The translations under genes and the position numbers were made by a program. DNA of 29,057 nt from a bacterium (lineage in GTDB: Bacteria; Patescibacteriota; Minisyncoccia; Minisyncoccales; CG1-02-41-26), in assembly GCA_021163625.1 (NCBI GenBank), contig JAGGTS010000031.1, positions 1-29,057 of the forward strand, given 5' to 3'. Shown here in pieces: positions 5,070 through 29,057 of this stretch. The notes beneath the pieces are model-generated. The model did no database searches. It saw nothing but the letters and a program-made list of their open reading frames with translations, and was not told the origin of the DNA. Within the stretch, counting starts at the first letter, position 1. The number at the start of each line of letters is the position of its first letter.

Positions 5070-5098
5070 TTGACTTTTCTTTTTATATCTTTTAATAT
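5070..5098 (+). promoter_or_regulatory. Putative sigma70 promoter for tuf
   Basis: TTGACT-N17-TAATAT right after the 4745-5065 stop; same hexamers as the rpsL promoter. Confidence 0.6.
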
Positions 5099-5212
5099 TA
5101 TTGTATAATTACAAAATTAAATTAAACGAATTTACGAGCTAATCTTGCCTACGATTGTTAATCTAAAGATTGTAGGCTTGTGTTAAGCTGGTATATTTGT
5201 ACATTTAGCATT

Positions 5213-6412
5213 ATGGCTGAAAAATCAAAATTTGAGAGGACAAAGCCTCATTTAAATATTGGAACCATCGGTCATGTAGACCATGGCAAGACAACTTTAA
5301 CAGCTGCCATTTTAAAATACTCAAAAATGAAGGGATTTTTGAGTTCAGAAAAAACGGTTGAAGAAATTGATTCCGCGCCGGAAGAAAAGGCTCGCGGTTT
5401 GACCATAAACATTTCCCACAGCGAGTTTGAAACGGAAAAAAGGCATTATGCTCTTATAGATTGCCCAGGCCATGCAGATTATATAAAGAATATGATAACA
5501 GGGGCCGCCCAAATGGACGGAGCAATTTTAGTTGTTTCTGCCAGCGATGGACCTATGCCCCAAACAAGGGAACATGTGTTGCTCGCAAGGCAAGTTGGCT
5601 TGCCGTCAATAGTAGTTTTCTTAAATAAAGTTGACCAAGTTGACGATCCTGAAATGATAGAGCTCGTTGAGTCGGAGATAAGAGAGCTTTTGAAAAAATA
5701 CGAATTCCCGGGTGACGATGTCCCTATAATCAAAGGTTCTGCCTTAAAAGCTCTTGACGCGAAATCTCCAGACGATGAGGCAATGAAGCCTATTGCCCAG
5801 CTTATAGAAAAAGTAGATGAATACATCCCGGAACCGTCAAGAGATTTAGATAAGCCATTTTTAATGGCCGTTGAAGACGTTTTTTCAATCGCAGGCAGGG
5901 GCACCGTAGCTACAGGAAGAATAGAAAGGGGAATAATCAAGCCGGGAGATGAAGTGGAAATTGTTGGAATTCGTCCTACTCAAAAAACAGTTGCTATTAG
6001 CGTTGAGATGTTTAATAAAACATTAGATGAGGGCAGGGCAGGAGACAATGTTGGAATTTTACTTAGAGGTTTCAAAAAAGAAGATATAGAAAGAGGTCAG
6101 GTTATAGCAAAAGTTGGCAGTATTACTCCGCATTCAGAATTTGAAGCAGAAGTTTACATTTTAACAAAAGAAGAAGGAGGAAGACATACGCCGTTTTTTG
6201 CCGGCTATAAACCGCAGTTTTATATCAGAACTTGCGATATAACTGGCGATGTAACCTTGCCCGAGGGAACTGAAATGGTTATGCCCGGAGACACTGTAAC
6301 CCTTAAAATTAAGCTTATTAGTTCAGTTGCTTTAGAGGAAAAACAAAGGTTTGCTATTAGAGAGGGAGGAAAAACAGTTGGGGCAGGATTAGTGACAAAA
6401 ATAATAAAGTAA
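5213..6412 (+). CDS. tuf: Elongation factor Tu (start moved to ATG 5213)
   Basis: [40 protein letters not shown]. Confidence 0.99.
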
Positions 6413-6985: not shown

Positions 6986-7579
6986 ATGAGTTTTATTTTA
7001 GGAAAAAAGATAGAAATGTCCCAAATTTTTGACGATAACGGAAATGTAGTGCCGATAACTTTAATTGAGGCAGGGCCTTGTATTGTTTTGCAAATCAAGA
7101 GCAAAGAGAAAGACGGTTATGATGCTATCCAGATTGGCTTTGAAAAAATGGATAATTCAAAATTAAAAAAAACAATGAAAGGCAAGCCATTCCGTTATAT
7201 TAGAGAGTTTAGGGGTGATATTAAAAAATATAAGACAGGGCAAAAGATTGATGTTTCTGTTTTTAAGGAGTCAGATAAAGTTAAAATTTCAGGCATTTCA
7301 AAAGGAAAAGGTTTTCAGGGTGTAGTAAAAAGATGGGGTTTCGCTGGAAAAAATGCCACTCATGGCGTTAAACACGAACACAGGACAATGGGATCGGCTG
7401 GGGCCACAGGACCCGCAAGAGTTTTTAAGGGCAAGAAGATGCCCGGCAGAATGGGTTCGGAAAGAGTGACAATAAGGAATTTAGAAATTGTAAAGGTTGA
7501 CAAAGACAATAATTTATTGGCAGTAAAAGGAGCAGTGCCAGGGAGAAGAAAGTCGTTGCTGGAAATTTCTAGTTTATAA
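6986..7579 (+). CDS. rplC: 50S ribosomal protein L3
   Basis: SKGKGFQGVVKRWGF, GKKMPGRMG. Confidence 0.98.
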   Translation: MSFILGKKIEMSQIFDDNGNVVPITLIEAGPCIVLQIKSKEKDGYDAIQIGFEKMDNSKLKKTMKGKPFRYIREFRGDIKKYKTGQKIDVSVFKESDKVKISGISKGKGFQGVVKRWGFAGKNATHGVKHEHRTMGSAGATGPARVFKGKKMPGRMGSERVTIRNLEIVKVDKDNNLLAVKGAVPGRRKSLLEISSL

Positions 7580-21695: not shown

Positions 21696-21935
21696 AAAAT
21701 TGTGCTCGCCAAGCAATATCTTGGGCTTGTGCTTACCCTTAAACCAAACTCTAAACTCTAATATCCAAATCCTAAACAAACCACAAATTCCAATGACCAA
21801 ATGTTTTTATTATTGGTCATTGGTCATTTTTTCGTCATTCGTCATTCGGGTTTCGTCATTTACAAACTATTTTGATTTGTGATTTGTAATTTAGAATTTG
21901 TTTAGAATTTAGAATTTAGGATTTAGGATTTCTAC

Positions 21936-21956
21936 CAACGAGTCCGGGTCTCGTTG
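21936..21956. repeat. CAACGAG-N7-CTCGTTG hairpin, copy without RT
   Basis: CAACGAG-TCCGGGT-CTCGTTG; same 21-mer at 27531-27551 (inverted) and 28807-28827. Confidence 0.95.
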
Positions 21957-21970
21957 ATAGACCTTCCCCC

Positions 21971-22050
21971 TGTCATTGCGAGGAACGAAGTGACGAAGCA
22001 ATCCCAGATTGCCGCGTCGTCCCGCTGAAAGCGGGGCTCCTCGCAAGGCA
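21971..22050. repeat. REP-like palindrome of TGTC/CGTC-ATTGCGAG type
   Basis: TGTCATTGCGAGGA...GAAGCAATC-CCA-GATTGC...CCCGCTGAAAGCGGG...TCCTCGCAAGGCA; inverted copy at 27437-27516. Confidence 0.8.
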
Positions 22051-22300
22051 GCGAAAAATGAAAAACTAAAAATGAAAAACTAAAATGCAAAATTAAAAGA
22101 GATTTTGAATTTTTAATCATTAATAATTTTCTTTGAAATAAAAGCCATGGCAGTTATTTCAAAGAAATTAAATTGGATGAAAAATCAAAAAAAGGGAAAT
22201 TTAGGATTTGTTTAGAATTTAGAATTTAGGATTTTTGTGCTTACCAAGGGTAAGCACAACTTTGTTTTGCGCAATTTTTTACGCCACATAAGGCCAAGCC

Positions 22301-27183: not shown

Positions 27184-27436
27184 ATTAAAAGTTGTGCTTA
27201 CCCTTTTTGTACTTGCCAAAGGCAAGCACAAAAATCCTAAATCCTAAATCCTAAATTCTAAACAAATTCTAAATTTCCCTTTTTTTGATTTTTCATCCAA
27301 TTTAATTTCTTTGAAATAACTGCCATGGCTTTTATTTCAAAGAAAATTATTAATGATTAAAAATTCAAAATCTCTTTTAATTTTGCATTTTCATTTTTCA
27401 TTTTTCATTTTTCATTTTTCGTTTTTCGTTTTTCGC

Positions 27437-27516
27437 TGCCTTGCGAGGAGCCCCGCTTTCAGCGGGACGACGCGGCAATCTGGGATTGCTTCGTCACTTC
27501 GTTCCTCGCAATGACA
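27437..27516. repeat. REP-like palindrome, second copy
   Basis: Reverse complement of 21971-22050. Confidence 0.8.
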
Positions 27517-27530
27517 GGGGGAAGGTTTAT

Positions 27531-27551
27531 CAACGAGACCCGGACTCGTTG
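27531..27551. repeat. CAACGAG-N7-CTCGTTG hairpin downstream of RT
   Basis: CAACGAG-ACCCGGA-CTCGTTG, 71 nt beyond the RT stop. Confidence 0.95.
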
Positions 27552-27622
27552 GTAGAATTCCAATAGTTTAGTAATTTGAATTTGGATGTTAGCTGACAGG
27601 TAGCGGATTTTAGATTGAATGT

Positions 27623-28795
27623 TTAAGTTTTGCGCCTGTTTTCTTTTTCCAGTTTTCTCTCAATTTTCCCGATTCTTCTTTCCAGTTTTTTCAGCAAACC
27701 AGTCAATTTTTTCAACTCCTCCAGAATTAATTTTTGTTCGTATTTGTAGCCTTTTTCCTCTAATTCCAGTTGGAAGTGTAAGGTTTGCTCGTCTGCCAGT
27801 TTTCGCGCCTTTTTAGCCATTTTCCGAAAAATATGCTTTTTTTTACAAGTATATTTTTCTTTTATTCCCAGAAGTGATTTTAAGCCGAGATTTTTTAGTA
27901 TTTTATTTGTCAGGAAAAGATTCCCTTCTTTGTTCCTGCTGTCTTTGTTCCGGCTTAAATAACGGCGTAATCTCATCCTGATAAAGCCATCAAGTTTTTC
28001 AAAAGTTCTTTTACAATGAGCGAATTTATAGTAGTGGCCAAAGCCCAAAATTTGGTTGTTTAAAGATTTGATGATTGCTTTTTGAGGTTTTTTTCTTGTT
28101 AAACGGGTTAATTTAATAATTTTCTTTTTAAAATTTTCAATTTTTTCTTCCTGAATCGTGAAATAACCGGCAAAAAAATAAAAACCGATAAAATTAACCT
28201 TATCTTGATGAAATTTTCCAGATTTTAATTTCTTTTCGTTTATTTCTAGATTTAATTCTGTTAATTTTGGCAAAATTAAGTTTTTGAGCAGAAATTCCGG
28301 CTCTTTCTTGTTTTTGCAAAAAACTAAATAATCATCCATCTGCCGAAGAAAAGGGTTTTTAAGGTTTAAGTCTAAATCCAAAAGAAAAACACTTGCTAAA
28401 ACCCAAGAAAGACGAGAACCGATTGATAGCCCTTTGCCATAGGGTGATTGAGATAAAAAGATTGGAATTTCATTTTTCAGATATTTTTTAAATCTTCTTG
28501 AGGGTTGCTTATGCTGGATTTTTTGATAAATCTCAGACATTTTTTTCAGGAGAATTTGATGATTGATGGAGGGATAATAAAGCCGAATATCAAAACGCAA
28601 AAAATAGGGATATTTTTTGGAAGTTTCTTTGACAAAGTTCAGGGCTTTGGACGGAATCGGCTGAATTAAAAAATGCTGAGGAAATTTTTCTTTTATTCTT
28701 GGCCTGAATTTCCGCAATAAAAAATCAGCCAGAAGTTTTTCCTCGGGTTTTTTGCGGGCTTTAAAATAAGGAAGATTATTTGTATTTTTAGGCAT
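27623..28795 (-). CDS. Reverse transcriptase with group II intron maturase-like thumb, N-terminally short
   Basis: RT3 FLRFDIRLYYPSINH, RT4 GLSIGSRLSWVLASVFL, RT5 FLRQMDDYLVF, RT7 VNFIGF, thumb LNNQILGFGHYYK...LDGFIRMRLRRYL. Confidence 0.9.
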   Translation of the reverse strand: MPKNTNNLPYFKARKKPEEKLLADFLLRKFRPRIKEKFPQHFLIQPIPSKALNFVKETSKKYPYFLRFDIRLYYPSINHQILLKKMSEIYQKIQHKQPSRRFKKYLKNEIPIFLSQSPYGKGLSIGSRLSWVLASVFLLDLDLNLKNPFLRQMDDYLVFCKNKKEPEFLLKNLILPKLTELNLEINEKKLKSGKFHQDKVNFIGFYFFAGYFTIQEEKIENFKKKIIKLTRLTRKKPQKAIIKSLNNQILGFGHYYKFAHCKRTFEKLDGFIRMRLRRYLSRNKDSRNKEGNLFLTNKILKNLGLKSLLGIKEKYTCKKKHIFRKMAKKARKLADEQTLHFQLELEEKGYKYEQKLILEELKKLTGLLKKLERRIGKIERKLEKENRRKT

Positions 28796-28806
28796 ATAAC
28801 GTTTAT

Positions 28807-28827
28807 CAACGAGTCCGGGTCTCGTTG
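28807..28827. repeat. CAACGAG-N7-CTCGTTG hairpin upstream of RT
   Basis: CAACGAG-TCCGGGT-CTCGTTG, 11 nt from the RT start codon. Confidence 0.95.
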
Positions 28828-28899
28828 GTTAATTTGTTTGTAATTTGTAATTTAGGATTTGTTTAGAATTTAGGATTTAGGATTTGAGATTTAACATTT

Positions 28900-29057
28900 T
28901 GTGTTTACCCTTGGCAAGCGCACATCCTGAGCAACTTATTTTTCAGAGATTGGGTCGCTGGGAAAAACCCGAATTCCTAAATCCGAAACCCGAAAAAATA
29001 CCAAATTCCCAATGACCAAATGTTTTTATTATTGGTCATTGGTCATTTTTTCGTCAT
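28900..29057. repeat. Palindrome-bounded element, copy D (inverted copy of A, runs off window)
   Basis: Reverse complement of ~232-385 with a few substitutions; shares the 28900-28922 palindrome with copy C. Confidence 0.92.

Follow-up and report, generated by a model that had tools for sequence, protein, structure and literature searches.

The reverse transcriptase (RT) described here, an intact open reading frame of 390 aa on the minus strand at 27623-28795 of the window (the whole 29,057-nucleotide stretch of DNA that was analysed), is a member of UG38, an RT family that is already named and uncharacterised. UG38 might represent a novel type of targeted diversifier of genes. At UG38 loci we report a short site, a convergent neighbouring gene and a variable zone on one side of the site, all of them new here. 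Our leading reading, put forward tentatively, is that UG38 is a domesticated group II-derived polymerase that diversifies the tip domain of a neighbouring adhesin with neither a template repeat (TR) nor Avd. To our knowledge, targeted hypermutation driven by an RT is known in prokaryotes from DGRs.

The RT matches the PADLOC profile RT_UG38 over its full length (E 5.5e-159, profile positions 1-309 of 309), while the runner-up profile reached 1e-26. It also has the host and domain content of UG38, with a CPR host and RVT_1 and GIIM as its only domains. Mestre et al. 2022 named UG38 as a class 2 UG/Abi group with CPR hosts; they described it as small, left its validity open, considered the defence prediction inconclusive, and gave no function, site or neighbour for it (PMC9226505). 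The RTs of that study show no protein-level difference from the present one (PMC9226505), and we found no literature on UG38 besides it. The host genome (G000) is 579 kb and 93% complete, the RT homologues carry Patescibacteria names, the window is a stretch of ribosomal-protein and housekeeping genes, and the public runs that match best are hydrothermal vent metagenomes.

The initial annotation had allowed for this gene being a 5'-truncated pseudogene of full-length homologues. We retrieved ~190 homologues, the majority 365-415 aa long, and because the first catalytic Asp lies at residue 63-75 in nearly all of them, the short N-terminus is a family trait. The gene is under purifying selection, with a dN/dS of 0.21 overall, 0.11 in the thumb and 0.38-0.46 in the tail across five independent homologue pairs, and truncation was rejected on both grounds. 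As annotated, the DNA upstream is a hairpin rather than coding sequence: an in-frame stop lies 11 codons 5' of the ATG, and a 29-nt palindrome stands directly ahead of that ATG, which leaves no room for an overlooked N-terminal extension. UG38 was single copy in each genome searched, and neither UG38 nor the exact family site described below was found in the viral contigs searched. Copies with stops or frameshifts occur in G777, G559 and G550 (L190, L197 and L198), which indicates that the gene is often lost or decaying.

Table 1. Features of the RT gene and its flanks, in window coordinates
Feature	Position	Strand	Remark
N-terminus, residues 1-62	28610..28795	-	Conserved LPY(F) strand, RT2 helix, RT2a-like loop and helix
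RT3	28574..28591	-	Catalytic D69 to Y74
RT4 GLSIGSRLSW, residues 122-131	28403..28432	-	Gln of PQG lost
QMDD, residues 152-155	28331..28342	-	Both Asp invariant
Group II-type thumb/domain X, C-terminal LGLKSL motif	27860..28150	-	Pfam GIIM, hhalign, omega 0.11
Basic linker and heptad helix, residues 313-390	27626..27859	-	Family-wide addition; omega 0.38-0.46
CAACGAG hairpin	28804..28832		Directly upstream of the RT ATG
Second CAACGAG hairpin, loop inverted	27526..27554		~70 nt after the RT stop
Repeat mosaic (heptamers, palindromes)	27193..27525		Between the RT and a convergent conserved 415-aa gene
Repeat mosaic upstream of the RT	28833..29057		Extends to the contig end

The catalytic Asp trio recognised in the initial annotation is confirmed, with FDI at residues 68-70, and is invariant in 40 sequences. 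Position Y74, the steric-gate aromatic, is Y or F in 40/40 aligned sequences. The same annotation considered RT0, RT1 and the start of RT2 to be absent, and this held for RT0 only. Because the structure model (pLDDT 84) aligns from residue 4 to residue 66 of GsI-IIC, RT0/NTE is missing, while RT1 survives as a remnant; the RT2 helix (H17-37) is present in the model. The thumb does resemble maturase domain X, as proposed (Pfam GIIM at residues 220-286, E 8e-14, after RVT_1 at 55-206), and the predicted basic region and heptad C-terminus correspond to one long modelled helix (residues 308-389) with hydrophobic residues at 10/15 a/d positions. QMDD and the W that replaces Q in RT4 are both found in this copy, as annotated, but neither is constant in the family. 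QMDD occurs in 1/120 homologues, position 1 being Q/I/F/Y/V/H and the first two YxDD positions varying freely. The family RT4 pattern is G(L/I)(P/S/A)(I/L)G(S/N)xLS, in which (P/S/A)(I/L)G replaces PQG, and the residue after LS is Y/W/H/F.

Positioning of the dNTP and substrate in G2L4 and GsI-IIC falls to three elements, namely an arginine in RT1, the XQG motif and the tyrosine of YxDD (PMC11761039). The RT1 remnant of UG38 lacks a conserved Lys/Arg. Loss or relaxation of all three elements with retention of the steric gate suggests a DNA polymerase of low fidelity or low processivity, and the earlier suggestion of altered fidelity or template use fits the bare RT1, the replaced PQG and the relaxed first YxDD position. 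The RT1 remnant might leave little polymerase activity.

The initial annotation also saw in this protein a hybrid of DGR and group II RTs. In hhalign comparisons, residues 49-317 matched group II RTs (E 5e-39), while residues 61-227 matched DGR RTs (E 1e-15, with only three DGR sequences in that profile). The best structural match is GsI-IIC, a group IIC intron RT (PDB 6AR1/7K9Y; Z 24 over 305 residues, RT 4-324 on 66-426), ahead of G2L4 (Z 19.9) and a DGR RT (Z 18). These matches favour group II over DGR RTs; the hybrid was rejected, and UG38 is instead derived from a group II intron RT. It is not an ordinary group II IEP either, a placement that the annotation had named as the alternative. 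In a quick tree with three DGR rows, UG38 was separate from both group II and DGR RTs, forming with a distant branch one side of a split with an SH-aLRT of 99. The TIGR04416 (group II IEP) score was 104 bits against a cut-off of 300, no RT0-RT7 set with PQG and YADD is present, and an Rfam search for DV/DVI at 20 UG38 loci (E<=1) found no flanking intron RNA. UG38 shares with GsI-IIC the fold, domain X and the C-terminal LGLxSL, but it lacks RT0, PQG, YADD and intron RNA, has a degenerate RT1, has gained a coiled tail and is single copy. Like G2L4 it is a group II-like RT that stands alone and whose YxDD is altered, whereas G2L4 keeps NTE/RT0 and RT1 and a fixed YIDD, neither of which is true of UG38, and descriptions of G2L4 mention neither a linked site nor a target gene (PMC11761039). 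By the features that define each class, the RT thus falls outside DGRs and group II introns and within UG38.

In homologue loci, the RT stop is followed by a 22-bp pseudo-palindrome, CCAAGGGT-NN-ACCCTTGG-GCAA. It lies less than 200 nt from the RT stop in 37/51 non-redundant loci, as compared with 0/41 upstream of the RT and 2/135 other gene ends; the 37/51 figure is in part circular, because the consensus had been drawn up by eye from the earliest loci. Nine further GTDB genomes served as an independent check, and the site was recovered at 3-5 mismatches in all 5 informative new loci. A hairpin with a U-tract was found at the site in 17/41 cases. Pairing in the site showed no compensatory changes, the pairs simply being broken, so a structured RNA was rejected and sequence recognition is more likely. 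At L051, the last ~70 nt of the RT are duplicated downstream (5094-5164 and 5354-5424) and the site is shifted to +322.

The RT runs antisense to its neighbours almost without exception across ~80 homologue loci (28/30 upstream, 27/28 downstream), an SD precedes it in 1/53, and its start is often near a divergent promoter. Past the site lies a convergent Cys-rich gene of secreted or pilin type in 21/27 loci, compared with 14/135 other genes, and the site follows the stop of that gene by about 20-50 nt, mostly 21-49 nt. Pfam domains in these convergent genes include Fib_succ_major, Lcl_C, Shufflon_N and PTL_trimer. On the divergent side, the commonest neighbour is a signal peptidase S26 gene (~24 loci, e.g. 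L059:407-994), within pilin clusters. Avd or another accessory gene is not a constant partner, four-helix genes being present in few loci only.

A stand-alone role in anti-phage defence as a DRT, which the class 2 UG/Abi label of UG38 would suggest, is very improbable. UG38 does group with UG/Abi RTs, is included in PADLOC and sometimes has small toxin-antitoxin genes nearby, but a signal peptidase and pilin/adhesin genes are what most often flank it, Mestre et al. 2022 reached no conclusive prediction of a defence role (PMC9226505), and the UG38 loci showed no constant partner gene, conserved upstream RNA or defence-island context of the kind expected for such a system.

Comparison of near-identical locus pairs showed that the ~300 nt next to the site in the direction of the gene are hyperdivergent, while the RT side remains near 100% identical. 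Pairs that are 90-100% identical over the RT and flanks drop to 45-85% within 50-250 nt on the gene side, and identity recovers in those cases in which the convergent gene extends past the variable zone. Substitutions in the zone versus elsewhere were 24/276 vs 0/1435, 84/274 vs 18/2634 and 28/279 vs 6/3419 in three pairs, and 41/134 vs 18/1996, 85/214 vs 17/2139 and 88/241 vs 139/2135 in further pairs; the pair L226/L227 had no variation in the zone. Within the loci concerned, other genes with a lectin fold show no such hyperdivergence (L001/L031, L002/L004). Alleles differ in dense patches on a fixed Cys/Trp scaffold, with small indels and sometimes whole-domain swaps, and the changes extend to synonymous sites, indels and columns without A (37%). 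A is present in 100/158 variable columns (63%; 48-100% by allele set), with 35/47 and 6/6 in two sets that are enriched in A; these proportions are compatible with a DGR adenine rule and also with its absence. In L091-L096, a run of 8 or 9 G (1449-1458), immediately 5' of the variable zone, toggles the adhesin C-terminal domain in and out of frame, a form of phase variation.

Shufflons swap PilV tips and thereby vary the C-terminus of a pilus-associated adhesin. The UG38 loci share with them a varying adhesin C-terminus and weak Shufflon_N matches in the targets, but differ in having no recombinase or invertible cassettes and only one site per locus. In an unlikely account, alleles of adhesin tips would be exchanged while diversifying selection acts on them, and UG38 would be a G2L4-like repair or template-switching polymerase, or simply a conserved homology arm beside the site. 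This account draws on whole-domain swaps bounded by a DAATKGYVD block and the site, on a second Lcl copy or strain variant in this assembly (the C16 end), and on the close structural match to G2L4 (Z 19.9), the precedent for a group II-like RT in end joining (PMC11761039). For L146 and L153, where the differences are whole-domain swaps, recombination is the simpler account. However, dense patchy changes, identical spacers and the frameshifted fresh allele of L096 fit an error-prone tract better, a silent cassette library was not found, and the RT0 loop required by G2L4 is missing from UG38 (PMC11761039).

The pattern resembles that of DGRs of the BPP-1 type and CPR clade 2, which likewise limit variation to the 3' end of ligand-binding genes, have a hairpin-like site after the target and IG in RT4, and share target folds. 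In contrast to DGRs, UG38 loci show no TR or Avd, their RT is antisense to the target and has a group II-type thumb, and their variation appears to go beyond adenines, includes indels and covers a zone of up to 300-400 nt. A template repeat was found neither in 70 loci nor in six draft genomes, which may be incomplete, and MAGs can miss DGR cassettes. UG38 is the sole RVT_1 match in 9/13 UG38 genomes checked (G000, G034, G313, G487, G510, G550, G559, G707 and G777); G436 and G718 carry other, DGR-type RTs.

Given these likenesses, canonical DGRs that act in trans, or that were inserted and then lost, might mutate the neighbouring genes with UG38 as a mere co-resident of the hotspot; we regard this as improbable, though it is the foremost of the alternatives. 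Known DGR target folds (Lcl_C, Fib_succ_major) are among the targets, two sets of alleles are enriched in A, variable end, short invariant end and hairpin are arranged as in DGR targets (PMC8632793), and remote DGR targets are known and hard to detect (PMC8144416). In addition, L216 (G578:C2:1-2900) and L039 carry a canonical DGR (Avd, Fib_succ-type TR and RT) at the orthologous site, at a tRNA-Arg locus, where it is convergent with the UG38 gene and truncates it. Against this account, no TR was found in six genomes and no second RT in nine, and the saturated synonymous sites, the indels and an identity of ~50% go beyond the reach of a single fixed TR. It also leaves the association of UG38 with the site unaccounted for. 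In G436 (L117, L120) two canonical DGRs are found beside UG38, but these act on other targets and are without the site. The DGR that truncates UG38 would fit functional replacement, and equally DGRs that come and go; under our leading reading such an event at one orthologous site would be expected, because the two systems would be alternatives.

That leading reading, of UG38 as a TR-less diversifier of adhesin tips, is correlational throughout, and its steps are as follows. The target mRNA would end at the site, as the hairpin with U-tract in 17/41 cases may suggest, or read-through RNA from the RT gene would cross it, and the RT, stripped of nucleotide-positioning elements, would recognise the site. 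It would then make a short, error-prone copy, a few hundred bases long, of the gene's own 3' end, and this copy would replace the chromosomal gene end. With no fixed template, changes would accumulate round after round. UG38 could, with a similar degree of doubt, be a second and independently evolved diversity generator that consists of one group II-derived RT and one short site and works, in cis or in trans, by iteratively mutating the 3' end of the adhesin gene itself, without a template repeat, an accessory protein or a strict adenine rule. The system seems to be DGR-like in its working and seemingly undescribed. DGRs are found by their TR/VR pair, so a system without a TR would be missed by any search that relies on this pair.

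In the window itself, the RT copy has neither the family site nor an adjacent surface gene. The second CAACGAG hairpin occupies the position where homologues have the site. The initial candidates for element ends, the two CAACGAG hairpins, were rejected as features of the family: the hairpin is a genome-wide repeat (9 copies on 7 contigs) that is not RT-specific and was not seen beside homologue RTs. The mosaic between the RT and the 415-aa gene is ~90% identical to 21926-22259, and that gene is conserved and unchanged on 14 contigs. RT-less mosaics at 21701-22258 and 99-385 share their modules with the RT flanks; mosaics of this type are found throughout the genome, and many contigs break at them. 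Vent metagenome contigs across the RT have lower depth than flanking contigs and end at repeats, and no inversion or excision joint was seen. Since depth does not measure a share of cells, we base no conclusion on this.

The sole good copy of the site in this genome is at C3:2632, behind an Lcl_C gene (C3:2809-3465). P0270, a vent relative of this gene, differs from it at 10/80 of the first codons and at nearly all of the last 40, where synonymous sites are saturated, while the site itself is identical. P0270 is either an allele or a paralogue of the C3 gene, and both are kept because the C16 end resembles P0270. In G313 the RT and the site-plus-target are likewise on separate contigs. Under our leading reading, repeat shuffling would have separated the RT from the site in this genome, and the RT would act in trans on the Lcl-domain gene.

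In the class sample the site was found in 5/401 genomes, both UG38 genomes among them. In the order sample UG38 occurs in 10/401 genomes and the strict site pattern in 12/401, that is, in 2/10 UG38 genomes and 10/391 UG38-negative ones; in several of the UG38 genomes that do not match, the site is too degenerate for this pattern or the RT is cut by the contig end. Among five UG38-negative site matches examined, 2/5 hold UG38 relics. One of these, L204 (G689:C43, around 7070-7260), is internally deleted, with LPYF joined to the YF of RT3, and lies between a signal peptidase and the site-plus-target, the site and surface gene being kept. Other UG38-negative copies of the site were by RAYT transposases, in coding DNA or between housekeeping genes. 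RAYT as an obligatory partner was rejected, as G000, G559 and G718 have no Y1_Tnp.

The patchy distribution (10/401) and the G689 relic that retains its site can also be read as signs of a selfish retro-mobile cassette, with UG38 and the site as a ribozyme-less group II remnant inserted antisense between a host promoter and the end of the upstream gene. Close homologues do diverge right at the ATG (L063/L070, L026/L028), which lies near a divergent promoter and is missing an SD. We consider this account quite improbable, as UG38 is single copy in each genome searched, has no intron RNA and yielded no clean empty site, and the one-sided hypervariation is unexplained by it.

If UG38 is indeed a diversifier, an orphan RT group filed under defence would gain a function, episymbiotic CPR bacteria would have a mechanism to vary their host-binding tips, and one protein with one site would make a compact mutator. 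UG38 can be put to a direct test even under the rival accounts, thanks to its site, its neighbour and a variable zone on one side only.

A distant branch (L187 and proteins P0148-P0170, P0184 and P0205) has the same short N-terminus and coil tail as UG38, with an Atlas cluster that is mostly Bacteroidota. At L187, the only long locus of this branch, a DUF6261 gene lies on the same strand and the CPR-type site is missing. A further branch of group II-like RTs (P0226, P0227, P0230, P0254, P0258 and P0260) has GNPLG in RT4, (Y/F)IDD and a degenerate N-terminus.
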